A stretch of 64,000 nucleotides of DNA from positions 19,827 through 83,826 of IMG/VR virus record IMGVR_UViG_3300009873_000004. One strand, written 5' to 3'. Within the stretch, counting starts at the first letter, position 1. Every line of letters begins with the position of its first letter. The notes beneath the pieces were generated by a model. That model ran no database searches. It saw only the letters and a list, made by a program, of their open reading frames with translations, and was not told the origin of the DNA. The translations under genes were made by a program, and so were the position numbers. Origin of the DNA: a virus (Duplodnaviria > Caudoviricetes). Of the stretch, positions 21,719 through 37,188 are shown piece by piece.

Positions 21719-24571
21719 TTACCAGGGGGCTTGCCAGCCTGTTTCTGATTCCGTTTCGGCCCAGCCCATGGCCGCCAGAAGCTCGTCCTCGGAATATTGG
21801 GCATCCAGCGAGAGCATCGCCTCGTAGATGACGTAGGTGGCGTGGCGCAGCATGTCGGTGTCGTGGTCGACCAGGCGCTTCTTGTCGGACGGATCAGGCG
21901 GGCCGTAGTAGACCGTGTGACCCGACTGGGTCTTCTTCTCGGTCGTGCCGCCCAGTTCGGACTGGAGATCGGGATCCGGACCAAGCCAAAGCTTGCGGCC
22001 GGGGAAGGGGGTGACGGCGTTGATCATCCAGTTGCGCAGGCGCTCGGTCGAGAGTTGCTTGTTGGGAATGTTGACCGTCTCGGCCTTGCGGGCTTCGTCC
22101 GACAGGATCCGGTAGACCTCGGGCTCGCGCTCGCGCAGCTTGTTGACCTCGAAGGTGGTCGAGCCGCCCGGCATGAAATGGCGGTAAAGCTCTTCCAGTT
22201 CCTCCCCGGCCGCCTGCTTGAGCAGTTGCACGGTCGGCAGGTGGTCGGACGAGAAGCCGACGAACTCGCCGGTAAAGACCTTGGTGCGCACATGCTGGAT
22301 GATGTCGATCTGGTGCGGCTGGGCGATGCGGCGCATGGTCAGCTTCACCACCAGCCGCCAGACATCCTCGGCCACGTCTTCATCGCTGAGTTGAGCAACC
22401 ACGCCCAGGACGGATGGATCGGGCGAGTAGCCATAGTCCAGGGCCAGGACAAAGCGCTTGACGCGCTGGCTGCCGAGCTTGAGGATCAGCCCCAGGTCGC
22501 GCATGTCCTCCCGCCCCAGGGCGAAGAGTTCCTGGGTGATGTAGGGGTGCGCCCCAATGGCGATCGAGCCAGGCGGGAAGGACGAGAACAGTTCCTCGCC
22601 CCATTCCCCCAGGACCTGGGTGATGTAGCCGTGGCTCTTCTCCCCGCCGTAGTCCTCGATCAGCTTCTGCTTGGCTTCTTCCGAGTCGTAGAGCGGGTTG
22701 ATGTGGGTCGGGTACTTGTGGCGTGACCAGGACTTGCCCCGATCGGTCTGGTCGAGTTCGTAGAAGGGCGAGCGCCGCACGCCGTTGGGCACGCCCGCCA
22801 GCACCCAATGGCAGAAGGGCAGGGCGGTCTGGAGCAGGGAATTGAAGACCGGGTAGGTGCCGAAGGCCTGCTCGTCGCCCCAGATGTAGTGCGCCCGCAG
22901 GCCGACCACGTTGCGGTCGGTGCCCGACAGGCCCTCGATGCGGAAGTAGATCAGCAGCCCGCCCTTGAAGCGCAGGATCGAGTTGTCGCCGCGCTTCTTT
23001 TCGGCCACGAACCCGCCCAGCAGGATGTTGCGATCCAGCCGGTTCCAGACCCGGTCCAGGAAGGGGTTCATGTGGACGTCGGACGGGGTGAAGAACAGCG
23101 CTTCGACCGTGCCTTCCGACTCGGTCAACAGCCCGGTCTGGATGACGTCGGCTTCCAGGTCGATCGTGTTGTGGGTGATGAAGCCGTTGGCGACAAAATT
23201 GTGCGATCCAGGAACGTTCAAGTCGTAAGTCAATTCCTCACCGTCAGGTGTAATCGACTCGATTTCGTCCCAATACACATGCCCATCCGCCAGGTTGATC
23301 AGATCTCCAATTCGATTGATCCAGCCAACCTTGAGCGCCTTGCTGCGGGAAACCTCGTAGCTTGATTTCAAACGAACGCCAGCATTGACTCCGGCCGTGT
23401 AAACACCGACGCCGGATTGCTCGATCACCGTCCTGACCAGTTGAAGCGGGATGCGATCGTGCTTGCTGGGTCCGGATTGAACAGCTAGATCGACAGCCGC
23501 CTGGACGGCAGCTTCTTTCGAGAAAATGCCGATCTCACTGGCGAAACGAATAACATCCTGGGAGTCGCAGATTTCGAGCGAATAACTCACTCCCCCAAGA
23601 TGCGTCTTTTTTGGATAAATCCTGGCGAAGATCCCAAAACGCAACAGCAGTTCACGCAGATCCTTGATCAATTCCAGGGAGACGCTGGCGTAACCGATGG
23701 AACCCGAGCGGGTGGCATAGCCATCCGTGGCATACAACCTGCTCAAAAAGAGCTTCAGCCCATCTCGACCAAGCGCGAAGATGGCATCGGGAATGAACTT
23801 GGTGTGGCTGTTCTTTCCGTTCAGTCCAAGTTCTACCAGCCGCCGCCTCAAGGGATTGACGATCTCATGGCGTTTGAATTTCTTGTTTGCCACAACGACA
23901 TAGTCGTACTTTCCACGCCGCCTGAGCGACAGGTCCCGATCCATTCGGTTGAGCCAGCCGGTGAAGTCCTGCAAAACATCCGGCGAGGCGGTAGTAAAAA
24001 CCAGCGTTGATCCCGAGATCCCACCATCCCCCAGCAGATAGGCAACCAGGGCAACCTCGCAATCTTCCAGCCCGCTGGTGTCTTCCGTGGGCATGGGCAT
24101 CTTGCGAGCCATGCCAACCAGATCGCCTGGCTTGAGATCTTCGCAGTTGGCCCAGCCGCTACCAGTCAAAAAGGGATGATTGCCGGAAACCCGAATGCTG
24201 GATCCCGATCGTGTTGTCACCTTGAATACCGGAACAACTTCATTAGGCCAGATCTTGGCTTTGGTCGGCCAGATACGCCAATCTCCCGCCAGCGAGGCAA
24301 CGTCCAATGGACCCTTTTCGATGTGGTCGGCTCGTTGTCGTCTTCCGGTATAGGGATCAACAATCAGCGTATCGCCCGCAATACACTTGGCGATCTTGCG
24401 GCCGGTGCAGTAGAGCTTGCGCGGGCTCTCATCGCACCACATCAACTTCTGTTCCCAGGATGGCTCCAGGGTGATCTCGTCCTTGAAGACTTCCTTGCGA
24501 AACAGGACCCGGTCGACCAGGACCAGGCCCGCGTAGAAGTCCAGATCGTCCGGAGCGGTTTCAAGGGTCAT
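21719..24571 (-). CDS. terL: Terminase large subunit containing an intein
   Basis: Walker A GRKIAK|T, Walker B YIWGDEQA, coupling motif GVPNG, nuclease LDYGYSPD and DHDTDMLRH. Confidence 0.9.
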   Translation of the reverse strand: MTLETAPDDLDFYAGLVLVDRVLFRKEVFKDEITLEPSWEQKLMWCDESPRKLYCTGRKIAKCIAGDTLIVDPYTGRRQRADHIEKGPLDVASLAGDWRIWPTKAKIWPNEVVPVFKVTTRSGSSIRVSGNHPFLTGSGWANCEDLKPGDLVGMARKMPMPTEDTSGLEDCEVALVAYLLGDGGISGSTLVFTTASPDVLQDFTGWLNRMDRDLSLRRRGKYDYVVVANKKFKRHEIVNPLRRRLVELGLNGKNSHTKFIPDAIFALGRDGLKLFLSRLYATDGYATRSGSIGYASVSLELIKDLRELLLRFGIFARIYPKKTHLGGVSYSLEICDSQDVIRFASEIGIFSKEAAVQAAVDLAVQSGPSKHDRIPLQLVRTVIEQSGVGVYTAGVNAGVRLKSSYEVSRSKALKVGWINRIGDLINLADGHVYWDEIESITPDGEELTYDLNVPGSHNFVANGFITHNTIDLEADVIQTGLLTESEGTVEALFFTPSDVHMNPFLDRVWNRLDRNILLGGFVAEKKRGDNSILRFKGGLLIYFRIEGLSGTDRNVVGLRAHYIWGDEQAFGTYPVFNSLLQTALPFCHWVLAGVPNGVRRSPFYELDQTDRGKSWSRHKYPTHINPLYDSEEAKQKLIEDYGGEKSHGYITQVLGEWGEELFSSFPPGSIAIGAHPYITQELFALGREDMRDLGLILKLGSQRVKRFVLALDYGYSPDPSVLGVVAQLSDEDVAEDVWRLVVKLTMRRIAQPHQIDIIQHVRTKVFTGEFVGFSSDHLPTVQLLKQAAGEELEELYRHFMPGGSTTFEVNKLREREPEVYRILSDEARKAETVNIPNKQLSTERLRNWMINAVTPFPGRKLWLGPDPDLQSELGGTTEKKTQSGHTVYYGPPDPSDKKRLVDHDTDMLRHATYVIYEAMLSLDAQYSEDELLAAMGWAETESETGWQAPW
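23168..24385 (-). mobile_element. Intein with LAGLIDADG endonuclease (406 aa)
   Basis: CIAGDT N-terminus, SGNHPF block B, YLLGDG and LYATDG blocks, YDLNV..SHNFVANGFITHN|T C-terminus; lower GC. Confidence 0.95.
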
Positions 24572-27252: not shown

Positions 27253-27281
27253 ATTGTGTGACATTTTGGACTACGGGTCAA
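27253..27281 (-). promoter_or_regulatory. Sigma70-type promoter TTGACC-17-CACAAT (near-leaderless transcript)
   Basis: -10 ends 8 nt before ATG 27244; no SD. Confidence 0.6.
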
Positions 27282-27289
27282 GGGGGAAA

Positions 27290-27332
27290 GCAAAACGCCA
27301 GTCCTGGCTGGTAAGGTCGGCTGGCGTTTTGC
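27290..27332. terminator. Bidirectional intrinsic terminator
   Basis: GCAAAACGCCAG/CTGGCGTTTTGC 12-bp inverted repeat. Confidence 0.7.
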
Positions 27333-27522
27333 TGGAGCAGATTGGCGTCGGTTAGGACTATAACGGATAGCGTGTAGGAGAGTCAATGACGGGTTTGTAA
27401 TCCACAGGTTAACAACCCGTTACAAATGGACTGGCCCCTGAGTCGTCACTTGGATGTGCGCCCAGGGGCCAGTTGCCCACACGAAGATCCCGCAGCACCG
27501 CGAGACCGAAGGACGAAGGGGA

Positions 27523-27741
27523 TTATAGGCCTGGCGCGGGCAGGTTGTCAACGACGAAGACATCCCAATAAGCGACGACCTTCTCCAGTTCGGTGATGGC
27601 AACGGCGACGTGACGGCCGTAAGCGTTCCAGGCGGACAGGTCCTTGGCCTGATCGCGCAGGCTGGCGTGGACGTCGCGGTACTGGCGCATAGAGCCCAGC
27701 GTGGCGTACAGGGACTGGAGAATCGACTCGGGGTCATTCAT
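27523..27741 (-). CDS. Hypothetical protein (72 aa)
   Basis: GGAGGAG SD before ATG 27741. Confidence 0.6.
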   Translation of the reverse strand: MNDPESILQSLYATLGSMRQYRDVHASLRDQAKDLSAWNAYGRHVAVAITELEKVVAYWDVFVVDNLPAPGL

Positions 27742-27820
27742 TCTGGGAACTCCTCCTGGTGAAAGAGCAGACCCCAGCGCTGAGTGAGGGGGGCACTCAG
27801 AAGCCGGGGCTGCACGGCAG

Positions 27821-27849
27821 ATGGTAAGCCAGGGCAGGGGGATTGTCAA
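27821..27849 (-). promoter_or_regulatory. Sigma70-type promoter TTGACA-17-TACCAT
   Basis: Consensus -35 with optimal spacing. Confidence 0.7.
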
Positions 27850-27939
27850 GAGTCCATCCGCATGGCAGGTTGATGGCCCCAAGCCGGTGCGAACTCGTTG
27901 CGGATGGGTGGTGGGAGCTTGCGAGTTCCAAGCTCTAGA

Positions 27940-28062: not shown

Positions 28063-28630
28063 ATCGGGGCAGGCGGATCTTCTCCCAGTGATCCCTTCGC
28101 CAGGTCGGGTGTCCGGAAGTCGCGGATGCTGTGGCTCGCTGACCGTGTGCCCTGGCACCTGCCCCTAATAGCTATTCGCCCGAGCGTCACAAAACCGGAA
28201 AGGGAGTGTATGATCAACCTGACACATCCGGTGCGCCAGGAGAAGTGGCTCCAAAGCGCTGGGCATCCCCAATCCGGACACGGAAGCCTGTCACCGTGAA
28301 TTCGGAGCCTGTCGAAAGATGGGCTCCTTTTCATTTGGGCAGGCAGCGTTATGTGAAGGTGGGGATTTTGGGGGGTTCAAGTTGTGCGAGGGACTACCTG
28401 GGCCTGCCTCGCTGCGAAGCTGGCGAGTGTGGCGCACATGGGGGGGGGTCTGTAATCGCGTCAGAATGGCCCACGTTCGTTTTGGCGTCTCTAGCTCCGC
28501 ACTACTGCGATTAGGCCCATCCTAGGCCCGCCTGACGCGATTGTGAGCATGTCTAGGCGACAGTCACAAGCCACCGTGCGGCCAAGTGTATTTGTGTCGC
28601 TTGACCGTGTGTTGTAGGATGTTTTTTGCC

Positions 28631-29090
28631 TGACCCATCGCGGGTTTGGCCTTGGCGTCATGCGCCATGGTTCCTTGATAATTCTGCTAGGGGTGGGGTC
28701 AGGCAAAGGTTTCGAGTCTGACCCCTGGCCGAATCGACGTTCGGTCACTGGCCCACTACGCGCATATCGCAAGCACGCGAACCTGACCCCGGTCAGGCAG
28801 AACCGACGGGAGTTTACATAAAGTGACCCCGTTCTAGATCAAGGTTCTCGTGCTTAGGTCAGATGGTAGGGATCATTCTGACCCCGTGGGGAATTGTGTT
28901 GTCAGCCAATAGCAGATGGAACCCGTTGTTCCTTACCAGTCGCATAGCTAGGTTAGTTAGGTGACCCACCCCTGGCCCATAGGCGCATAGGGACTAGCCC
29001 ACTAACCCATCTTGACGCTAGGTCAGACCCCGGAAGGGGTCATAGTCTAGGGGTCAGGGGTGGGTCACTTAACTACGCGGGGTCTGACCC
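28631..29090. repeat. Cluster of 11 TGACCC/GGGTCA motifs in both orientations forming several hairpins
   Basis: Copies at 28631, 28696, 28719, 28784, 28824, 28879, 28962, 29037, 29051, 29062, 29085. Confidence 0.85.
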
Positions 29091-29120
29091 ACCCCGCACT
29101 AATGCCCATAGGAGGCAAAC

Positions 29121-29726
29121 ATGGCACGGAATAGCAAAACGCATCGGTTTTTCGCGGAACCTCTGGAATCACTTCCGGAAGTGGTCACGTTCTTAAACAA
29201 GCACCACAAGTACGGAACCGGGGTTACCGCGACTAGCAAAGACGGCGCGAATGTCAGCCTGACCGCCAAAGGACAGATTGAGTTCGCGCAAGGAACCCGG
29301 CGCCTGACCTACAGCCTAACCATGGCGGGGCCGTTCGCCAAGCTTGGCGAATTGCCCAACACTCGGGGTCAGGCAGAATTTGACCGTAACGCGACGGTCA
29401 AGAACGTGGGTCAGGTAGAATTCCGGCTTGACTGGCCCGAAGTGGCTTATGGCCCGCGCATGATGCGCCAAGCGGAAAAGAACGGGTTTGACAAGTGGTA
29501 CGGTTCGGAGGTACTTCACTTCCGAAATGGCGAATTGACCGTCAAGTATTCCGCCGTCATCACCCCGGTCAAGGCCGATGTCATCATGGGGACCGATGAG
29601 AAATTGGTTTCCAAGCCACTTGACGACAAGGCCCGCCAGTACCAGAGGACGGAAGTGGTCGCCAAGGAACTGACCGAACCCAAACCCACCCCGAACGGCG
29701 CGACGGAACCCGAACCCACCAACTAA
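29121..29726 (+). CDS. First early gene, hypothetical (201 aa)
   Basis: GGAGG SD; atypical codon usage. Confidence 0.7.
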   Translation: MARNSKTHRFFAEPLESLPEVVTFLNKHHKYGTGVTATSKDGANVSLTAKGQIEFAQGTRRLTYSLTMAGPFAKLGELPNTRGQAEFDRNATVKNVGQVEFRLDWPEVAYGPRMMRQAEKNGFDKWYGSEVLHFRNGELTVKYSAVITPVKADVIMGTDEKLVSKPLDDKARQYQRTEVVAKELTEPKPTPNGATEPEPTN

Positions 29727-29745
29727 CCTAGTATGCGACTGGCCC

Positions 29746-29781
29746 AAACTGGCCCACCCCGTTCGGGGTGGGCCAGTTTTG
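29746..29781 (+). terminator. Intrinsic terminator T0
   Basis: AAACTGGCCCACCCC-gttc-GGGGTGGGCCAGTTT 15-bp stem then TTG. Confidence 0.8.
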
Positions 29782-29821
29782 ATTCCCCACCCCACCCCAT
29801 AACCGCATAGGAGGCTGACCC

Positions 29822-30256
29822 ATGGCCCACCCCGCCTATAACGATGACTGGCGGAACCATGGCGCTAGGCCCGCGCATAGCAAGCCGGTTGACCCACCCC
29901 ACCCATGGGAAAAGAATGGGTGGCGCGAGTCTGACTGGGAAGAATTGCGGGCTATCCGCGCCGACGACAAACGCCACAAAACCGAAGAACTGGCGCAATC
30001 CGCTATTGACCGCGCCGAAAAACGCGAAAAGGAATTGATCCGCATCGCCAGACGCGGGCTATCCGACAATGATCGCCTGTATACCTACGCGGAATTGATC
30101 GCTAGTCTACGCTCTAACCGAGAGCAACTTATCTGGGAATTGAATATCGCCCGAACCGCAAACGTCCTTAGCAAGCGGATTCCCGATCCGGAACCCTGGA
30201 AGACCGTCGAATTCCTGGCGCATCTGCTACTGACCCTATCCGACAAGCAAATCTAA
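29822..30256 (+). CDS. Hypothetical protein (144 aa, helical)
   Basis: GGAGG SD; followed by terminator. Confidence 0.65.
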   Translation: MAHPAYNDDWRNHGARPAHSKPVDPPHPWEKNGWRESDWEELRAIRADDKRHKTEELAQSAIDRAEKREKELIRIARRGLSDNDRLYTYAELIASLRSNREQLIWELNIARTANVLSKRIPDPEPWKTVEFLAHLLLTLSDKQI

Positions 30257-30271
30257 TCCGCACTGCAAACG

Positions 30272-30300
30272 AGGGCCGCAAGGCCCTTTTTTGCGTTAAG
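30272..30300 (+). terminator. Terminator T1 plus conserved junction motif
   Basis: AGGGCC-GCAA-GGCCCT, T-run, GCGTTAAG. Confidence 0.8.
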
Positions 30301-30337
30301 CAACCGGCGTTTTCTATCCGCGCACTGGAGGTGCAAT

Positions 30338-30499
30338 ATGCTTATTCTCGCAGTATCCGCCGTCACCCTGCTTATTTGGTGGCGCATCAACTGTTGGCGC
30401 GAAGATCAGCGCCAAAAGCAGTATCCGCGCATCCGCGCCAATACCGTCCTGGACTGGCGCTATCCGCGCCAGAACTCCGACCAGGGATCTATGTGGTAG
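30338..30499 (+). CDS. 53-aa membrane peptide
   Basis: GGAGG SD; N-terminal hydrophobic helix MLILAVSAVTLLIWW. Confidence 0.55.
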   Translation: MLILAVSAVTLLIWWRINCWREDQRQKQYPRIRANTVLDWRYPRQNSDQGSMW

Positions 30500-30513
30500 T
30501 TCCAAATCTGGAA
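30500..30513. promoter_or_regulatory. Palindromic site TTCCAAATCTGGAA
   Basis: Intergenic, directly after a stop codon. Confidence 0.55.
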
Positions 30514-30524
30514 CTATCCGCGTT

Positions 30525-30573
30525 GGGGCAGGGAAGGGCGATTGTGCCTCTCCCTGCCCCTTTTTTGTTTAAG
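30525..30573 (+). terminator. Terminator T2 plus junction motif
   Basis: GGGGCAGGGA/TCCCTGCCCC, T6, GTTTAAG. Confidence 0.8.
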
Positions 30574-30610
30574 TAACCGGCACTATCCGCGCACAGAAAA
30601 GGAGATCAAC

Positions 30611-30799
30611 ATGGGCATTGATCGGGCATTCGCGGTTGTCATTTCCTGGGAGAACGGCGCTTCAACCGTATTCGGCCAGGACAACGACTCCAGCGGCGAG
30701 GGGCACTACGCTGCCGTTTACGCACCGGACGGCATTATCCGCTGGCCGATGTACGACACCGGCTGCGATCCGACCGAAGTCACCGAACTCGACTTCTAG
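30611..30799 (+). CDS. Hypothetical protein (62 aa)
   Basis: AAGGAG SD. Confidence 0.6.
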   Translation: MGIDRAFAVVISWENGASTVFGQDNDSSGEGHYAAVYAPDGIIRWPMYDTGCDPTEVTELDF

Positions 30800-30816
30800 G
30801 CCCTATCCCGGCCGCT

Positions 30817-30854
30817 AAAACGGGCTGCATCGCGCAGCCCGTTTTGCATTTAAG
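30817..30854 (+). terminator. Terminator T3 plus junction motif
   Basis: AAAACGGGCTGC/GCAGCCCGTTTT then GCATTTAAG. Confidence 0.8.
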
Positions 30855-30881
30855 TAACCCGCGTTTTATCAGCACAAGTAG

Positions 30882-31256
30882 TATCCGCGCCGCACCCAGC
30901 TTCCCAGAAAGGAGATGCGCCCATTAAATTTATCCCGGTAGGGTGAACTACCTGAGGGCTTGCACTTCAGGCCACAATCGCATATCGCACTAGAAGATCC
31001 CTTACAAGGGACTCGGGACTGCGCTTTCTCTATAGGCTGTGCCCGTAAACAATTCGCGCATCTCAGACGCGATTCACAATCAAGTATCTGGACCCGGAAG
31101 GTATGGCCGAAGCAGACTGTCACCGGGTAATGAAATCAGCTTGCTTACGGGGCGTCCTGGGCCTGTATGACGGCAGGCAGGCGTCAACACCCATCTATCC
31201 CGTCATTAGGTAGCCTGTTGGACGTGAGGGTCCCAGCCCTGCCAGGCTATCGAAGC
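30882..31256 (+). ncRNA. Candidate structured non-coding RNA (unassigned)
   Basis: Cassette between T3 and T4 without a credible ORF; lower GC; several hairpins. Confidence 0.3.
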
Positions 31257-31297
31257 AAAACAGCCCGCCCTGGGAGGCGGGCTGTTTTGCATTTAAG
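31257..31297 (+). terminator. Terminator T4 plus junction motif
   Basis: AAAACAGCCCGCC/GGCGGGCTGTTTT then GCATTTAAG. Confidence 0.8.
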
Positions 31298-31305
31298 ACA
31301 CCCGC

Positions 31306-31435
31306 TATCCGGGAAGCGATCGGACTCCCGGAACACGACTCGCCACAGGCAGGTGGATCCCTGGAAAGATCTCTCGCCGAGTCGCGTTGCCGACTGCCCG
31401 CCCACTCACCCTCTCAACCCCATCCGCAGCACCCT
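31306..31435 (+). ncRNA. Candidate small structured RNA (unassigned)
   Basis: ORF-less cassette between T4 and T5; stems TCCGGGA/TCCCGGA and CGACTCG/CGAGTCG. Confidence 0.3.
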
Positions 31436-31470
31436 GGCCGGATCTCTGTGTCCGGCCTTTTTGTTTTAAG
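31436..31470 (+). terminator. Terminator T5 plus junction motif
   Basis: GGCCGGA/TCCGGCC, T5, GTTTTAAG. Confidence 0.75.
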
Positions 31471-31496
31471 TAACTCGCTATCCCGGAAAGGAGATT

Positions 31497-31601
31497 ATGG
31501 ACGAGGACATCCGCTACCTCATTGGGCAGACCCGCACCCGCTATCTGCGGATCATTCTATTCGTGGCCCTGGTCCTGGCGACCAAGGTCGCGGGAGGCTA
31601 A
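31497..31601 (+). CDS. 34-aa membrane peptide
   Basis: AAGGAG SD; hydrophobic C-terminus. Confidence 0.55.
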   Translation: MDEDIRYLIGQTRTRYLRIILFVALVLATKVAGG

Positions 31602-31603
31602 CC

Positions 31604-31891
31604 ATGAATTGTGACAAGTGCGGCCATCCGGTCGCCCAGCACGAGGACGCAACCTGGCTGGACGCGATCGCGAATGACAATCCCATCGTCATCCTGTTCA
31701 ATCAGGCACGGCATATTCGCTGCTCGCCCTCGCGAGCCCAATTCATCGTCCATCCGGCTTTCGAGCCTGTTGTCGATGATCGTCCTGAATACGACAAGCG
31801 CCTGCTCGCCTCGAAGGATGCCCATCACCTGGAAATGCACTGCACCCAGGCCTGGGTGCAGCTTCAGCACCATTGCGGCATGGAGGTGTAG
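31604..31891 (+). CDS. Hypothetical Cys/His-rich protein
   Basis: GGAGG SD; CDKCGH...H motif. Confidence 0.6.
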   Translation: MNCDKCGHPVAQHEDATWLDAIANDNPIVILFNQARHIRCSPSRAQFIVHPAFEPVVDDRPEYDKRLLASKDAHHLEMHCTQAWVQLQHHCGMEV

Positions 31892-31893
31892 CC

Positions 31894-32097
31894 ATGTTCC
31901 AACTCTACAACCGAGAAGCCGAAGGCGTTCCGCCAGGGACGGACCTGACTCCTTTCCTGGTCTGGGAAGGCGACTACGACGCTATGATGGCCTATCTGCG
32001 CCAGGCGGGCGATCCCACCGGCGCAACCTTCGTGATCGCCTACACGCCCGCCCTGCTGTGGCGGGTGCTGTATCAGCCCGAGCAGTTGTTCGTCTAA
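31894..32097 (+). CDS. Hypothetical protein
   Basis: GGAGG SD. Confidence 0.6.
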   Translation: MFQLYNREAEGVPPGTDLTPFLVWEGDYDAMMAYLRQAGDPTGATFVIAYTPALLWRVLYQPEQLFV

Positions 32098-32110
32098 GAA
32101 CAGGAGACCC

Positions 32111-32305
32111 ATGACCACCAAAACCAGAGGCAAGCTATCCCGCACCCGGCGCAAGATCGGCGCGTTGGAGCGCCAGATCACCTTCGATACCGCCCGCCTG
32201 GCAGAGGCCAATGCCCGGCCCGACCAGTACTGGGATCGCATTCAGACGCTCAACAAGCGCCTGGAGCGCAACATCCAGGCCCTGAAGAAGATCAACGCCA
32301 TCTGA
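32111..32305 (+). CDS. Small basic coiled-coil protein
   Basis: AGGAG SD. Confidence 0.6.
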   Translation: MTTKTRGKLSRTRRKIGALERQITFDTARLAEANARPDQYWDRIQTLNKRLERNIQALKKINAI

Positions 32306-32317
32306 TCCGTTCGTCCC

Positions 32318-32361
32318 AAAAACGGGCTGGGCCTTGTGTCCCAGCCCGTTTTTGCTTTAAG
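32318..32361 (+). terminator. Terminator T6 plus junction motif
   Basis: AAAAACGGGCTGGG/CCCAGCCCGTTTTT then GCTTTAAG. Confidence 0.8.
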
Positions 32362-32416
32362 CTGACGCCACCACCCAAAGTATCTGTTGGCGTCAATTAC
32401 ATATCGGGAGGCCACC

Positions 32417-32548
32417 ATGCCCACTCGGGAAGATTGGATCATTCTCTTCGAGATGATCCTGGCACTCGGCCTGACCCTGGCCTGCGTGTTGGGGATCAGT
32501 GCCGCCTATCTGGCCTGCCACCAGTGGATGCCCGCCCTGTGCGGGTAA
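32417..32548 (+). CDS. 43-aa membrane peptide
   Basis: GGAGG SD; single TM helix. Confidence 0.55.
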   Translation: MPTREDWIILFEMILALGLTLACVLGISAAYLACHQWMPALCG

Positions 32549-32560
32549 GGGAGAATGCCC

Positions 32561-32680
32561 ATGGAAAAAGATAGCTACGAACGCTTTGTAATTCACCTGT
32601 GCATTGGCATTGGCACGCTGGCCTTTTCGGGCATGCTCTACGCCCTGGGCCAGGTCATCGCTATTCTGAAGGGAGGCTAA
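32561..32680 (+). CDS. 39-aa membrane peptide
   Basis: GGAG SD; single TM helix. Confidence 0.55.
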   Translation: MEKDSYERFVIHLCIGIGTLAFSGMLYALGQVIAILKGG

Positions 32681-32681
32681 C

Positions 32682-32870
32682 GTGGAAGAAAAGACTGTTT
32701 CGTTCGTATTCCGGGGCAGCCCGGAAGCCCTGGAGCGCCTGCACGATCGCATTATTGGCGCGACCAACATCATCGAAAACCTGCATGGCCTGAAGATCGA
32801 AATGGTCGGGCCGTTCGACGAGGAGACGGAAGATGGGCCGCAAACCCCCGAATCCGAAGAACGGCGCTGA
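32682..32870 (+). CDS. Hypothetical protein
   Basis: GGAGG SD before GTG. Confidence 0.55.
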   Translation: MEEKTVSFVFRGSPEALERLHDRIIGATNIIENLHGLKIEMVGPFDEETEDGPQTPESEERR

Positions 32871-33072
32871 GACTATCCGCTATGCTGAGCACCACCCCGA
32901 CTTGCGCTCCATGCGCTGCGAGGGCGACCACTTCACCTTCGAAGGCCCTGACGGCCGCATGACGGCTACCAATTCCAAGTGGGAGTATCCGGGCTGGCTG
33001 CGCAAGAAAGTCGTCCGCCAGTTGATCGCGATCGGTCTGGGAGTCCTGGCCGTGTTGTGGATGCTGCCATGA
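32833..33072 (+). CDS. HicA-like (dsRBD-fold) protein with hydrophobic C-terminal tail
   Basis: R..GDH..F....G......EYPGWLRKKVVRQL resembles the HicA pattern. Confidence 0.4.
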   Translation: MGRKPPNPKNGAETIRYAEHHPDLRSMRCEGDHFTFEGPDGRMTATNSKWEYPGWLRKKVVRQLIAIGLGVLAVLWMLP

Positions 33073-33197
33073 GCCTGCACAAGCAATTGGAACCACTGAA
33101 CGATCCGGAGGCGCTGCCCGAGCAGGGCTGCTGCCTCGTCTGGTTCGTGATCATAATGGCGCTGGTCGCGCTGCTGGCCCGCGCCCTGGGCTACTAG
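33069..33197 (+). CDS. 42-aa membrane peptide
   Basis: ATGA coupling; C-terminal TM helix. Confidence 0.55.
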   Translation: MSLHKQLEPLNDPEALPEQGCCLVWFVIIMALVALLARALGY

Positions 33198-33198
33198 C

Positions 33199-33453
33199 AT
33201 GTTCCCCATTCCTCATCCGCCCGGCAGCGCCCTGGAATACGGTCAGGTGCTGGAGCGCGTCTTATCCGGCTGGGTGCTATTCGGACCCGACACCGAGTTC
33301 CACCGCTCCGAACATGGCACCGACTTGCACGTTGTCGTTTATTCGCTCAGGCTGCATGTGGCTTGCCACGAAGCGGTGCTCTTCATGCACCTGGACCAGT
33401 GGCAGGCCATGGGCGTGGATCCACAACTGGTCTGGAAGCGTTCCTGGAAATAG
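33199..33453 (+). CDS. Hypothetical protein
   Basis: Co-oriented, tightly packed ORF. Confidence 0.55.
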   Translation: MFPIPHPPGSALEYGQVLERVLSGWVLFGPDTEFHRSEHGTDLHVVVYSLRLHVACHEAVLFMHLDQWQAMGVDPQLVWKRSWK

Positions 33454-33464
33454 ATCTCCAACTC

Positions 33465-33505
33465 AAACGGCCCTCCAAGATGCGGAGGGCCGTTTTTGTT
33501 TTAAG
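33465..33505 (+). terminator. Terminator T7 plus junction motif
   Basis: AAACGGCCCTCC/GGAGGGCCGTTT then TTGTTTTAAG. Confidence 0.8.
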
Positions 33506-33539
33506 CAACAGAAGTCTCTATCCGCACAGGAGAAAACCC

Positions 33540-33623
33540 ATGCTAATCTTCTTCATTGGCCTGATCGTCGCCGTGGCTGCGGGCTATCTGGTCTTCAGCC
33601 TGACCCATTCGGAGATCCCATGA
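33540..33623 (+). CDS. 27-aa membrane peptide
   Basis: AGGAG SD; MLIFFIGLIVAVAAGYLVF. Confidence 0.5.
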   Translation: MLIFFIGLIVAVAAGYLVFSLTHSEIP

Positions 33624-33790
33624 GCATGTTTGGCGACGGACCCAAGCAACAATTGTACGAAGCGATCCGCTACAACGGACCCGACTGGCGCGATCTGACC
33701 CTGGCCCAGTTCCTGGTGATGGTCCTGGACGTTGTCCGCGCCATCGTCGAGTACCACCAATCCGACTTTTTCCCGGAGAGCCAGCCATGA
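33620..33790 (+). CDS. Hypothetical protein
   Basis: ATGA-coupled. Confidence 0.55.
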   Translation: MSMFGDGPKQQLYEAIRYNGPDWRDLTLAQFLVMVLDVVRAIVEYHQSDFFPESQP

Positions 33791-34200
33791 CCGACCTGAA
33801 GAACTATCAGCCCAAGCACACTGAAGAGCGGCGCGAGTGGGTTCGCGCCTTCTGGAACAGCCCGCATTGCGGCTTCTCATTCCCCGTCGACCAGGACGGC
33901 AACTATCTGGGAGCGCCGCGTGGCACGGCCTGGGAGAACTATCAGGACTGCCTGGCCGGCAAGCATCCCAGCCTGATCGACCAGGGCGTTATCGAGAACG
34001 TCTGGTACGCCCAGATCCCGGCCAGTGGTACCTGCCGGTGTGGGCGCTTTGTCTGGCTCAACGATGCCCTCTGGAACGCCTGCGACTGCGGGCGCTACTA
34101 CAACCTATCCGGCCAGGAAGTACAGGCTCCGCATTCCGGGCCTTACGAGACCGGCGAGATGCTCAGCGACATCTATCTGGGAAAGGATGAGGATTACTGA
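33787..34200 (+). CDS. Hypothetical Cys-containing protein
   Basis: ATGA-coupled; CRCG...CDCG. Confidence 0.6.
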   Translation: MTDLKNYQPKHTEERREWVRAFWNSPHCGFSFPVDQDGNYLGAPRGTAWENYQDCLAGKHPSLIDQGVIENVWYAQIPASGTCRCGRFVWLNDALWNACDCGRYYNLSGQEVQAPHSGPYETGEMLSDIYLGKDEDY

Positions 34201-34559
34201 TGAAGTGCCAGGCCTGGATCGTCACGCTCACCCAACCGCCCCAGATCCGTACCCGCGCACTCTACATCGTGCAGGTCTCGCACGCCAACCATCCCCGGCA
34301 AATTGCCGAACTCAACTTCATCACGACCCAGAAGTATTACAAGAGCCTCAGCCCGGCGTACAACGCCCACGACCTGCGGCGCTGCCCCGGCCACATTCGA
34401 CCCAAGCTGATGGCTGATAATGGGCAGATTTACATCCAGTACACCTGCGATACTTGCAGACTGGCGGATTTTGAAGGCCTGCCCACCGTGAGCGACGTCG
34501 AGGCCGACCTGGCCCACATGATCGACCGCTTTCCGGATCGCTATTCGAGGGACGAATGA
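34200..34559 (+). CDS. Hypothetical protein
   Basis: TGATG-coupled. Confidence 0.55.
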   Translation: MKCQAWIVTLTQPPQIRTRALYIVQVSHANHPRQIAELNFITTQKYYKSLSPAYNAHDLRRCPGHIRPKLMADNGQIYIQYTCDTCRLADFEGLPTVSDVEADLAHMIDRFPDRYSRDE

Positions 34560-34723
34560 ACGCTACCGAGCGCCGACTGACCTATCGAGTCATTGAACTC
34601 GTCATCAACTTGCTGTTCACCATCCTGTACGCTATCACCCGAAGCGATCCGCGCATACCCGACTTGGGAAGCCGCTGGATCGAACTTGATCGCGACCTGT
34701 CAGATTGGAGCCGGGACGAATGA
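34556..34723 (+). CDS. Hypothetical protein (55 aa)
   Basis: ATGA-coupled at both ends; below ORF-track cutoff. Confidence 0.5.
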   Translation: MNATERRLTYRVIELVINLLFTILYAITRSDPRIPDLGSRWIELDRDLSDWSRDE

Positions 34724-34995
34724 TCCTGCGCACCGCCCACTGCGCTATCTGGCTGCACAAGCCCAACGAGTACGTCAAGGCCCCCTGGACGCCTTATCTG
34801 TATCCGGGCTTTCCCCTGAAGGGCTGCGAGCGCTTCAATCCCACCCGCGCTTTTAGCGCCGCCCTATCCCGCCTGGATCAGCTAGATCAGGAAGCCAGGC
34901 AAGCACTGGACATCCGCCCCTTGCCGAATGTGGAGCAGGGGGCTTACGACCACATCCCAGAAGGAGAATTCGAGGACTGCGATGGCGAAGTATGA
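34720..34995 (+). CDS. Hypothetical protein
   Basis: ATGA-coupled. Confidence 0.55.
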   Translation: MILRTAHCAIWLHKPNEYVKAPWTPYLYPGFPLKGCERFNPTRAFSAALSRLDQLDQEARQALDIRPLPNVEQGAYDHIPEGEFEDCDGEV

Positions 34996-35401
34996 GGAAC
35001 AAGACTATTCGCTGGTCATTGAACCAACCAGCCAACCCGGCGCGTTGGGCTTCAAGATGGTCTTTCGCAGCACGGACGCCACTCTGACCTTTTGGGTCTT
35101 CAAGTGGCCGCGTTATCAAAACGGCAAGATCTTCTGCACCGATCTGGTTCAGCACACGCCTGTTGAGCCTGGCGACTACACGGCCCAGTGCGAGTATTCG
35201 CCCACCGGCCACTGCTCGCCCTACAGCGTCATCCGCTCCACTGGCGCAGGCTGGGAATACCTGATGGAGCCCTACGATCTGGCCTGCACCGTGATCGAGA
35301 CTTTGGTCCGGGGCCATGTTGCAATCACACCCCAGGAAGATGAGCAGATCCTGCACGCCTGCGAGCGCTTCTGGGAAATCGAGCCGCTGCCCAACGAATA
35401 A
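34982..35401 (+). CDS. Hypothetical protein
   Basis: GAGG SD. Confidence 0.6.
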   Translation: MAKYEEQDYSLVIEPTSQPGALGFKMVFRSTDATLTFWVFKWPRYQNGKIFCTDLVQHTPVEPGDYTAQCEYSPTGHCSPYSVIRSTGAGWEYLMEPYDLACTVIETLVRGHVAITPQEDEQILHACERFWEIEPLPNE

Positions 35402-35425
35402 TGTGTCTGACAAGGAGACCAACAA

Positions 35426-35965
35426 ATGAGCTATTACGATGACATTCGCAAGCACGAAGCACGCGGGATCGACTATGACCTGATTGCCTGCCTGGAATAC
35501 AATCCGCAGCGCACGTTCACCGTCGACGACATCGAGCAAGTCCTGGCCGTCTGGACGGGCGAGAATGATGGCGACGACTGGCGCTGGGTCGTGCGCCTGT
35601 CCCCCGATCCAGATTATGGCGAAGCACGCTTTGCCTTCATCCAGGGCGGCTGTGACTATACCGGCTGGGACTGCCAGTCCTGGGCCACACATGCTTTTGC
35701 CGGTTCGGCTCAGGAGGCCGCGCTCAAGGCCCAAGGAGACTTTCCAACCGGCAACTGGAGTCCCCAGAACATGGGCCTCGGCCAGCTAATCAATCTGCTA
35801 TCCGGCGAAACAGGCAAGAACTTCAACGAGGTTGCGCTGGAACTCTTGCGCCAGGTAGCGCAAGGCAAGGACCAGACCTGGCGCGAAAAGAAAGACCAAG
35901 AACTGGGTCTGGACAAGAACCCGCCCAAGACCGTCGATCCTCTCGATCCGATGGGCGATTACTGA
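35426..35965 (+). CDS. Hypothetical acidic protein (GGCDYTGWDCQ motif)
   Basis: AAGGAG SD; high GC3. Confidence 0.7.
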   Translation: MSYYDDIRKHEARGIDYDLIACLEYNPQRTFTVDDIEQVLAVWTGENDGDDWRWVVRLSPDPDYGEARFAFIQGGCDYTGWDCQSWATHAFAGSAQEAALKAQGDFPTGNWSPQNMGLGQLINLLSGETGKNFNEVALELLRQVAQGKDQTWREKKDQELGLDKNPPKTVDPLDPMGDY

Positions 35966-35981
35966 TCTTTCATCCAAGGCC

Positions 35982-36018
35982 AACGGGCTCCCTAACCGGA
36001 GCCCGTTTTGCATTTAAG
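35982..36018 (+). terminator. Terminator T8 plus junction motif
   Basis: AACGGGCTCC/GGAGCCCGTT then TTGCATTTAAG. Confidence 0.8.
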
Positions 36019-36027
36019 CAACCGACG

Positions 36028-36041
36028 TTCCAAATTTGGAA
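36028..36041. promoter_or_regulatory. Perfect palindrome TTCCAAATTTGGAA abutting an SD
   Basis: Intergenic, between T8 and the next SD. Confidence 0.65.
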
Positions 36042-36051
36042 AGGATAACCC

Positions 36052-36267
36052 ATGCAGAAGAGTCTCTATCTGGCAACTTACTACCAGAAAGACAAGCAGA
36101 CCGGCCAGTTGTATTGGGCCTTGCTGCTGGTGCGCGAGGAGAGCCACTTCCGGGCGGAAGCCCAGGCTAAGGCGCTCACGCCCCAGGATTACACCTACCA
36201 CAACACCGAGCACCTGGACGAGCAGAAGCTCGACAAGAAGGGCTACCTGGAACTGTTCTATTCATAG
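36052..36267 (+). CDS. Hypothetical protein
   Basis: AAGGA SD. Confidence 0.6.
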   Translation: MQKSLYLATYYQKDKQTGQLYWALLLVREESHFRAEAQAKALTPQDYTYHNTEHLDEQKLDKKGYLELFYS

Positions 36268-36275
36268 GAGACTGC

Positions 36276-36497
36276 ATGCCTGTATCCATTGGGCGCAATC
36301 CATTCGCCCGCCATGACCTCGTGCGCGAGATCGTGCGCACCCAGAAGGGCTGCTCCTGGTGCGGTCAGAACTTCCGAGGCCGCCTGTTCGCCTACGGCCA
36401 TCACCCGGACGGGATCTACACCCGCCCCGCCTATCTCAAGGGCGAATTCTGCTCCATCGACTGCTGCCGCTCGTACCACGACGGCCAGCCCCAGTAG
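36276..36497 (+). CDS. Small zinc-binding protein
   Basis: CSWCG...FCSIDC; AGGAG SD. Confidence 0.6.
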   Translation: MPVSIGRNPFARHDLVREIVRTQKGCSWCGQNFRGRLFAYGHHPDGIYTRPAYLKGEFCSIDCCRSYHDGQPQ

Positions 36498-36524
36498 GAA
36501 GACTGACCCTATCCGGGTTAGAAC

Positions 36525-36553
36525 TTGCCTTACACGCCCATTTTGTGTAATCT
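36525..36553 (+). promoter_or_regulatory. Sigma70-type promoter TTGCCT-17-TAATCT
   Basis: Shares GTGTAATCTA with the 21690 promoter. Confidence 0.6.
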
Positions 36554-36574
36554 ATTAGCAAAGGAGACTGTTCC

Positions 36575-36835
36575 ATGCCGATTGACGAATTGATCGAGAA
36601 GCTGAAGGCCCTGCAAAAGCTGTATCCGGAGGCGGAGGTCGAGGTTCGCGCCTATGGTCCCAAGGGTGAAAACCTGGACGGTGATCCGCTCTTCTACGCC
36701 AACGTGCGCCACAATCTGGGCCAGAACATCCTGCTGGTCAGCGATCAAGACACCGAGGGCCAGGCCTGGACCACACACTGGGAAGACTGGATGGCAAGCA
36801 CCTACATCATGCGCTATCGGGAGGTAAAACCTTGA
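36575..36835 (+). CDS. Hypothetical protein
   Basis: AAGGAG SD. Confidence 0.6.
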   Translation: MPIDELIEKLKALQKLYPEAEVEVRAYGPKGENLDGDPLFYANVRHNLGQNILLVSDQDTEGQAWTTHWEDWMASTYIMRYREVKP

Positions 36836-37188
36836 TCTTCATCGAGTACGACCCGCACCTATCTGGTGCCGCCTGGCCGGACGGGCAAGCCCTGGAGCGA
36901 GCCCTTAGTATCGCCGAATGGGCCAAAACGATTGATGCCGACATCCACGAAACCTACTCCACCGAAAACATCTTCTACGCCCTGCGGCTGCTGATCGCCA
37001 ACGGCACCCTGCCGCACGATCGCATCCTGTTCGTCTATCAGGGCCACGCCTTCCAGGCCAACGAGTATGGGGCCATTCGCGACTGGCCGGAAGGTTTTTC
37101 CGACCTGACGACTCGCTTCAGCGAGAACATCATCCGCGCCGCCATGCAGAAACGAAAGGACAAAATCCATGGATCTCAAGCCGGGTGA
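36832..37188 (+). CDS. Hypothetical protein
   Basis: GGAGG SD, TTGA coupling. Confidence 0.6.
   Translation: MIFIEYDPHLSGAAWPDGQALERALSIAEWAKTIDADIHETYSTENIFYALRLLIANGTLPHDRILFVYQGHAFQANEYGAIRDWPEGFSDLTTRFSENIIRAAMQKRKDKIHGSQAG

Follow-up and report, generated by a model that had tools for sequence, protein, structure and literature searches.

The window analysed here is the last 64 kb (64,000 nucleotides) of the single-contig, 83,826-bp virus record IMGVR_UViG_3300009873_000004 (Caudoviricetes). It contains an early array of tiny ORFan genes divided by intrinsic terminators, eight of which run directly into one conserved AT-rich sequence, hereinafter referred to as the junction box. The resulting composite element is sharply defined and resembles the promoter-early stem-loop elements (PeSLs) of T4-like phages in logic and genomic context, but in seven of the eight junctions it lacks the promoter that PeSLs carry. 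The same elements recur from junction to junction with the box in a fixed register to the terminator, the box is unique to the array, sigma70 geometry is absent, and in one related phage the junctions are partly conserved and behave as modules. From this arrangement of sequence elements, the junctions are tentatively read as PeSL-like composite terminator/restart/leader modules insulating mini-operons, in which the box may be a non-sigma70 initiation signal.

Terminators, boxes and leaders of the array

Nine intrinsic terminators, each a GC-rich hairpin with a T-rich tract immediately 3' of it on the sense strand, were predicted from the sequence within 29746-36007, in agreement with a first-pass annotation of this DNA. 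In the scan, 14-45 nt upstream of every run of four or more T were folded with RNAfold; a simpler scan recovered four of the nine sites. Each terminator was located 10-30 nt past a stop codon or closed a unit without an open reading frame (ORF), and had six to eight T among the first 9 nt past the stem. The predicted free energies (kcal/mol) were -31.1 for T1, -12.9 for J2, -29.5 for J3, -19.3 for J4, -22.4 for J5, -14.1 for J6, -22.7 for J7, -22.5 for J8, and -18.5 for J9; judged by these values and the T-tracts, the terminators look efficient. Other clean sites of hairpin plus T-tract on the plus strand of the window were found at 27293 and 28304 only. The hairpins listed beyond 36 kb were judged weak and intragenic, and J9 was followed by no intrinsic terminator for 28 kb. 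The array and its junctions, with their Shine-Dalgarno sequences (SD), are listed below.

29121..36051, plus strand: whole array, ~30 tiny ORFan genes in eight coding units plus two ORF-less units; opens the plus-strand arm
29746..29779, plus strand: T1, terminator 3' of the 201-aa gene, the first of the right arm; without a junction box
30271..30337, plus strand: J2, hairpin 30271-30288, box TTTTGCGTTAAGCAACCGGCG at 30289-30309, TATCCG at 30315, SD, ATG at 30338 (53-aa membrane-like peptide)
30525..30610, plus strand: J3, hairpin 30525-30560, box 30563-30582, TATCCG at 30584, SD, ATG at 30611 (62 aa)
30818..30915, plus strand: J4, hairpin 30818-30844, box 30842-30863, TATCAG and TATCCG (30882), SD, ATG of an 8-codon frame only; opens ORF-less unit 4 (to 31257)
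31258..31311, plus strand: J5, hairpin 31258-31287, box TTTTGCATTTAAGACACCCGC, TATCCG at 31306; opens ORF-less unit 5 (~130 nt)
31436..31496, plus strand: J6, hairpin 31436-31457, box 31459-31478, TATCCC at 31479, SD, ATG at 31497; unit of four genes (34, 95, 67, and 64 aa)
32320..32416, plus strand: J7, hairpin 32320-32351, box TTTTGCTTTAAGCTGAC, which diverges most among the copies, ATG at 32417; six-gene unit
33465..33539, plus strand: J8, hairpin 33465-33495, box 33494-33513, TATCCG at 33519, SD, ATG at 33540; eight-gene unit
35982..36051, plus strand: J9, hairpin 35982-36007, box 36006-36027, SD overlapped by the palindrome TTCCAAATTTGGAA (36028-36041), ATG at 36052

The terminators J2 to J9 ran directly into TTTTG(0-3 nt)TTAAG-YAAC-CSGC, as had been noticed earlier for eight of the nine. 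The pattern TTTTGN{0,3}TTAAG occurred eight times in the window, each time directly 3' of one of the eight stems, against 0.11 expected from shuffled sequences, and a genome-wide search yielded no other copy. When aligned on TTAAG, the eight copies shared ~24 nt comprising the T-tract, TTAAG, YAAC, and CSGC. With a position weight matrix (PWM) of these 24 nt, they scored 26.8-35.6 bits and the next best genome site on either strand scored 13.0; a repeat search recovered the same family. The hexamer TTTAAG occurred nine times genome-wide on both strands, seven of them in junctions. A special avoidance of TTTAAG elsewhere was considered and rejected, because all TTAA-containing hexamers are rare in this genome.

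Only part of the motif was specific to the array. The bipartite T-tract (TTTTGCATTT, TTTTCATTTG, TTTTGCTTTC) was also present at the non-array terminators at 28304, 27329 (minus strand), and 6857 (minus strand), and the array-specific part is thus AAG-YAAC-CSGC. The stems had been described as differing, which was the case for J2, J3, and J6, whose stems are unrelated in sequence, whereas five stems share a basal 8 bp, AAAC(G/A)G(G/C)C...G(G/C)C(C/T)GTTT. Since hairpin sequences differ while the 3' box is kept, selection on the box is indicated rather than homogenisation of whole repeats. The box was the sole strongly AT-rich, meltable block in each junction, lying 26-37 nt before the ATG (55 nt in J7), and a purine stood at +6/+7 past TTTAAG in seven of the eight copies. 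An integron attC core (RYYYAAC...GTTRRRY) was rejected as an explanation of the junctions: the stem bases are AAAACGGGC/GCCCGTTTT, and AAGYAAC, situated outside the stem, departs from RYYYAAC at two positions.

The sequence (C)TATCC(G/C), often as CTATCCGCGCAC, was found in the leaders of six junctions at a distance of 8-27 nt from TTTAAG, and the SD followed after 0-10 nt. With that frequency, the TATCCG box plus SD is usual, as first described, but not general: the J7 leader (60 nt, with a small inverted repeat of its own) has TATCTG, and J9 has the palindrome over its SD. The variable distance between TATCCG and TTTAAG argues against these being two halves of one fixed-geometry promoter. 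As for the palindrome, (TT)CCAAAT(Y)TGG(AA) recurred at 30502, 36030, 46106, 54200, and 60978 in addition to 6904 and 16757, and overlapped the SD of the next gene in three right-arm copies; the J9 copy also covered the sole plausible -10 element of that junction. The copy TTCCAAATCTGGAA at 30500-30513 is located just 5' of J3.

The number of genes per unit was zero to eight, exceeding the range of zero to six given previously. Units 4 and 5 contained no credible ORF, and box and terminator were nonetheless kept. These two units folded no better than shuffled sequences (z = -1.15 and -0.03), and Rfam gave sub-threshold matches only, which were confined to the J5 terminator and its flanks (31170-31340). 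Inside unit 4, a sigma70-like site, TTCCCA-18-TAAATT (PWM 11.9), was observed at 30901-30930, which could begin an RNA of ~340 nt ending at the J5 terminator. No match to Pfam or PHROGs was obtained for the eight array proteins scanned.

The leader after T1 was of a different type, CCCCACCCC..TAACCGCATAGGAGGC, common to the leader of the 201-aa gene. This second leader type, CCACCCC..TAA..CATAGGAGGC, was located at 29075-29120 and 29780-29821, in front of the first two right-arm genes, and is unlike the eight junction leaders.

Junctions in a related phage

One relative was found in a large protein collection, in the Logan assemblies of ERR6015509 and ERR6015510, and was represented by four contigs (L200-L203) of 1-2 kb; the comparison is with this one phage, over ~4.7 kb in short contigs. 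Homology blocks, in window coordinates, were 31497-31909 (90% identity), 32111-32563 (96%), 32990-33795 (86%), 34905-34988 (94%), 35981-36270 (99.3%), and 36487-37151 (75%).

J7 was kept in the relative with three substitutions. At J8, the upstream gene, both stem arms, and the box were identical up to AGAAGTC, and the 7-nt loop (33477-33483 vs. L202:488-494) was the reverse complement, AAGATGC vs. GCATCTT. This change looks like a palindrome-mediated flip, and because the loop is flipped with the arms intact, it is the hairpin and not the loop sequence that has been preserved. Past the box, a 10-nt indel was followed by an identical TCTATCCG, after which the SD and the small gene diverged. 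J9 was identical but for one loop base, and homology started exactly at the 5' foot of its hairpin; from there through box, leader, and 71-aa gene, the two phages were 99.3% identical. The genes 5' of J9 encode proteins of 139 and 179 aa in the present phage and an unrelated protein of 79 aa in the relative. J6 was absent from the relative, in which homology began at the ATG of the 34-aa gene. Two leaders new to the relative had CTATCCG directly before GGAGG.

At least five gene gains, losses, or replacements were counted over the ~4.7 kb. Some occurred at ordinary coupled gene boundaries, namely an extra 49-aa gene, a replaced 137-aa gene, and a missing 73-aa gene. With cargo being swapped and junctions gained, lost, or kept, the array is hyperplastic, its junctions behaving as modules.

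Proposed initiation at the box and other explanations

The best sigma70 PWM scores in J2 to J8 were 3.2, 2.5, 6.2, -0.6, 0.2, 7.5, and 2.9, which bears out the earlier remark that most units have no canonical sigma70 promoter. J9 scored 10.1 (TTGCAT-17-CAAATT, with the -10 inside the palindrome) and was the only junction with a plausible sigma70 reading. Canonical promoters in intergenic positions of the same phage scored far higher, 13.8-15.6 (49484, 52897, 56254), and the box is thus regarded as a separate class of signal. In J6, with ~20 nt from box to SD, no hexamer combines A at position 2 with T at position 6 (no TANNNT).

Other promoter geometries were tried and rejected. TTGYNT as -35 with TATCCG as -10 gave inconsistent spacings of 12-24 nt and lacked the -7 T, and TATCCG as -10 would place the start site within the SD in J6 and J8. 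TTTAAG or TAAGYA as -10 lacked A-11 or T-7, and an extended -10 (TGn) geometry fitted only four of the eight junctions. By eye, and against their consensuses, none of sigma54, sigma28, sigma32, or a MotA box plus -10 fitted at a fixed spacing; sigmaB was rejected for GTTTAA without GGGTAT, and extracytoplasmic function (ECF) sigma factors for xAAC without a fixed CGT element. An archaeal TATA reading would remove the SDs.

Under the tentatively preferred reading, a junction would consist of a variable GC-rich hairpin terminator with a bipartite T-tract, the AT-rich box TTTAAG-YAAC-CSGC fused to it in fixed register, and a short leader, usually with (C)TATCCG(CGCAC), leading to SD and ATG. The terminator would halt the previous unit, its T-tract serving as the upstream part of the next start signal, and the box would act as a single-element, non-sigma70 promoter restarting transcription. 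Host RNA polymerase may be redirected to the box by an unrecognised phage factor, for which the first two right-arm genes, with their different leader, are a candidate source. The junctions would split the early ORFan-rich module into approximately nine insulated mini-operons, gained, lost, or kept as the cargo changes. We infer both the initiation at the box and the existence of a redirecting factor.

Since eight to nine terminators in series would extinguish plain read-through, the later units would need either restart or antitermination. Restart is tentatively favoured by the presence of a box where each unit begins, as the only meltable block, which would leave a leader of normal length (19-30 nt, with SD), with a purine 6-7 nt downstream. 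The ORF-less units keep box and terminator, as expected of independent transcription units. Precedents for dense early arrays of promoters and terminators are known from PeSLs (PMC4122927) and from phage P23-45 (PMC10770324).

Several observations weigh against initiation at the box. All eight boxes are tied to a terminator and none stands alone, and the unit after T1 has no box, so that at least one unit is expressed by another route. No second promoter element at a fixed spacing was found by eye in the junctions, which also argues against two-part promoters of the ECF, sigmaB, sigma54, or MotA type. Among the 25 of 28 matched families shown in a Pfam search of the 83 proteins of at least 90 aa, there was no RNA polymerase, sigma factor, antiterminator, or activator. 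Targeted Pfam and PHROGs searches with selected early and large proteins found no polymerase, sigma factor, or antiterminator, and proteins of at least 150 aa contained no two-barrel catalytic motif of the [DN]xDxD or DxDGD type; very divergent proteins could escape these searches. In the relative, the 34-aa gene lacks J6 and overlaps (TGATG) an unrelated upstream 45-aa gene. Moreover, this relative is single and its identity (86-99%) too high for selection on the box to be proved.

The further proposal of a new class of terminator-coupled promoters, used by host RNA polymerase that is either redirected or retained after termination and recycled, with TATCCG as a linked early-transcript signal, is rather doubtful at present. 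The early regions of phages gather host-takeover and anti-defence genes, and their wiring is known for few model phages. Here, textbook sigma70 promoters are used elsewhere in the phage, and eight early units are marked by a different signal joined to terminators. Should transcription start at the box, this would imply a new promoter class and a hidden factor among the ORFans that redirects RNA polymerase; as a read-through or termination signal, the box would represent a new way to gate early genes. With their compact size of 60-70 nt, the modules (terminator, box, leader, SD) lend themselves naturally to use as insulating parts, and they offer a means of locating cassette boundaries in phages that are uncultured.

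The first-pass annotation named PeSLs as the established analogue, and this was apt for layout and context, with an ORFan-rich region that differs between relatives, but not for the promoter. PeSLs and their PmSL counterparts are composite terminator-promoter cassettes of T4-like phages (Arbiol 2010; Comeau 2014, PMC4122927). The junctions have stem-loop, AT-rich stretch, SD, and start codon in the same order, and, as with PeSLs, they recur among the tiny ORFan genes of an early region that is hyperplastic and whose neighbour genes differ between close relatives. In the nt-1 type PeSL, a stem of A3-4G3-loop-C3T3-4 runs into a TTG-initiated box; the arrangement here, AAACGGGC-loop-GCCCGTTTTG, is very similar. 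PeSLs carry a sigma70 -35/N17/-10 promoter or a Mot box plus -10, whereas a -35/-10 pair was absent from seven of the eight junctions, with J9 as a weak exception. The present phage is also unrelated (84 kb, 60% GC), and no breakpoints were found inside its element.

A second comparison is with the GC-rich Thermus phage P23-45 (~84 kb), in which the first-entering genes are arranged in many small units (Chaban et al. 2024, PMC10770324). Its pre-early promoter motif is AT-rich, non-sigma70, and strongly conserved at 14 start sites, a 26-nt motif at seven pre-early terminators was read by the authors as an unusual termination mechanism, and later genes use other polymerases or promoters (PMC10770324). 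P23-45 differs in having a virion RNA polymerase fused to the tape measure protein and a second phage polymerase, none of which was detected here. No protein similarity of the present phage to cultured phages was found, and the motifs are likened by description only. A promoter array for a phage RNA polymerase of the T7, N4, P23-45, or phiKZ type would involve a phage-encoded polymerase, which the searches made did not reveal.

Start-associated sequences (SAS) and their extended form (ESAS) in Cluster K mycobacteriophages are short conserved sequences just upstream of many starts, in one orientation (Pope et al. 2011, PMC3203893), and an inverted repeat with a variable spacer precedes half of the SAS copies (PMC3203893). 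The TATCCG box, 0-10 nt before the SD, resembles SAS in position. The ESAS arms are conserved 17-mers without a T-tract; in contrast, the stems vary here and belong to canonical terminators, and the sequences are unrelated.

Processive antitermination is an unlikely alternative to restart at the box. According to it, transcription from one upstream promoter would pass all terminators with the aid of a factor, the box would be an RNA signal (boxA-like, for NusB/NusE) that loads or renews the modification, and the terminators would form a timing gate. The shortage of recognisable promoters, missing from seven of the eight junctions, is consistent with it. So is the lambdoid-like layout, in which an XRE/Cro-C1-type regulator and a divergent control region adjoin the array. 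The order of hairpin and box recalls rrn boxB-boxA, and the junctions share with lambda nut and rrn boxA a hairpin beside a U/A-rich 12-mer in an early operon full of terminators with a Cro/CI-like regulator alongside. The likeness to boxA that had been suggested extended to eight of 12 ungapped positions between UGCAUUUAAGCAA and the rrn boxA GCUCUUUAACAA, counted by eye against a general consensus that may not be that of the host, but the CUCUUU core is missing. In known systems, moreover, one loading site per operon is needed, whereas here there is one copy per terminator. No N- or Q-like protein was found in the Pfam and PHROGs scans, and upstream of the array (27.9-29.85 kb) no convincing sigma70 promoter was detected (best PWM 8.5-10.1).

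We also consider it unlikely that the box is a termination or processing signal, acting as a downstream-duplex element, as a protein roadblock, or as an AU-rich stretch for RNase E/S1 in read-through RNA; in the last version, it would set mRNA ends and boost translation of the next gene. The fixed register of box and U-tract in all eight copies, never without a hairpin, would suit such a role, as would the common motif at the P23-45 pre-early terminators (PMC10770324), and GC|AUU and GU|UUU fit the loose RNase E preference. Four other good predicted terminators (29746, 28304, and 27329 and 6857 on the minus strand), however, have no box. AT-richness alone leaves the conservation of AAG-YAAC-CSGC unexplained, and so does this explanation leave the expression of the units behind eight to nine terminators.

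A role of the box as a recombination patch, either a PeSL-like point of homologous crossover or a recombinase or nuclease site for cassette swaps between co-infecting phages, is improbable. The hyperplasticity of the array speaks for it, as do the occurrence of J6 in one phage only and two breakpoints that border the T9 hairpin (at its foot) and the J8 leader box (immediately 3'). It had been predicted that breakpoints should fall in the motif; within the compared contigs of the one relative, none was inside the box. Of those adjoining junctions, one was at the T9 hairpin (5' foot), one on the 3' side of the TATCCG of J8, and one at the start codon that follows J6; three or more swaps were at coupled gene boundaries without a junction. 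As ~3 of 10 breakpoints touch junctions and junctions make up ~1/4 of gene boundaries, no enrichment at junctions was apparent. In addition, the eight direct repeats have just ~20-25 nt in common, a short length for homologous exchange.

Very improbable is descent from one duplicated terminator-leader module with a functionless box: five stems do share their basal 8 bp and the leaders can be aligned with small indels, but J2, J3, and J6 have the same box behind unrelated hairpins, and upper stems and loops have diverged, one loop even being inverted, with the box retained in a genome where TTAA-containing hexamers are otherwise rare.

The TATCCG word and genome setting

Over both arms, TATCCG was co-oriented with transcription at 49 of its 50 sites, with sense:antisense ratios of 43:1 in the right arm and 6:0 in the left arm; most sites were intragenic, and the core is only 6-7 nt. 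The word CTATC showed sense biases of 83:6 (right arm) and 48:7 (left arm), so that much of the strand bias of TATCCG is a coding effect. Such an effect does not explain the sense density of TATCCG, which was ten-fold higher in the right arm (29953-62779) than in the left, was greatest at 30-32 kb (11 per 2 kb), and thinned along the right arm. Tyr-Pro was encoded as TAT-CCG in 18 of 26 cases in the right arm, compared with ~3 expected from codon usage, and in 4 of 25 in the left arm; this preference, likewise not accounted for by the coding effect, reflects selection at the DNA or RNA level. In-gene sites turned over between the two phages, and leader and intergenic sites were kept. TATCCG as a promoter of each gene was rejected, since it was not enriched upstream of starts (7 vs. 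4.6 expected). Chi-like, protein-binding, and early-RNA signals are each compatible with these data. Stoperators are asymmetric sites of ~13 bp, in one orientation and in short intergenic gaps, with a cognate repressor; TATCCG has a prevailing orientation as well, but one that is largely a coding effect, and its core is shorter and its sites mostly intragenic.

Downstream of the array, TTGCCT-17-TAATCT, with TGTG before it, was observed at 36525-36553, in the gap of 78 nt that follows the 73-aa gene. Immediately 5' of this site, a TATCCG was kept in the relative. The site is probably a promoter of the long operon that follows.

The genome (60% GC) is divided into a left arm of minus-strand genes, to ~27.9 kb of the window, and a right arm of plus-strand genes from 29.1 kb. 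Located in the left arm are genes for capsid and tail, a glycosyltransferase block, and genes for a GH25 lysin and a 950-aa protein with an intein; a 1240-aa protein contains a phage minor-tail-protein domain (Pfam). In the right arm, RNase H, a DnaB-like helicase, and an Ocr-like protein are encoded after the ~30 tiny ORFan genes, together with numerous small acidic proteins. The two arms are separated by a control region poor in ORFs, with strong canonical sigma70 promoters directed left, beside which a gene for a Cro/C1-type helix-turn-helix regulator (265 aa) is situated. In the ESM Atlas, this regulator was Cro/C1-like and not sigma-like, and the 201-aa protein gave no result.

No relative was found in a database of cultured phages, by DNA or by the capsid and helicase proteins, or in IMG/VR by the capsid, 950-aa, or 201-aa protein. 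Homologues of the 179-aa protein were present in many unrelated phages, none of which had the box, and scans of viral, metagenome, and genome collections with the box pattern returned chance or coding matches only, including a conserved gene of Clostridia. Comparison of the endolysin identified no host.

Within the control region, 28330-29120 (~800 bp) contained only ORFs of 53 aa or less, no convincing rightward sigma70 promoter (best PWM 8.5), and dense copies of TGACCC/GGGTCA and CTAG. Four leftward sigma70 promoters were located within 600 bp at 27253-27860 (minus strand). The one at 27551 (minus strand), inside a 105-aa ORF, is a perfect TTGACA-18-TATAAT (12/12), and those at 27849 and 27386 matched at 10/12 positions. 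Because the promoter at 27386 is only ~20 nt before the bidirectional terminator at 27293-27329, a very short RNA (~60 nt) is implied. Further to the left, the intein of the 950-aa protein (21719-24571, minus strand) was found to include a LAGLIDADG endonuclease (Pfam E-values 1e-18 and 2e-20).

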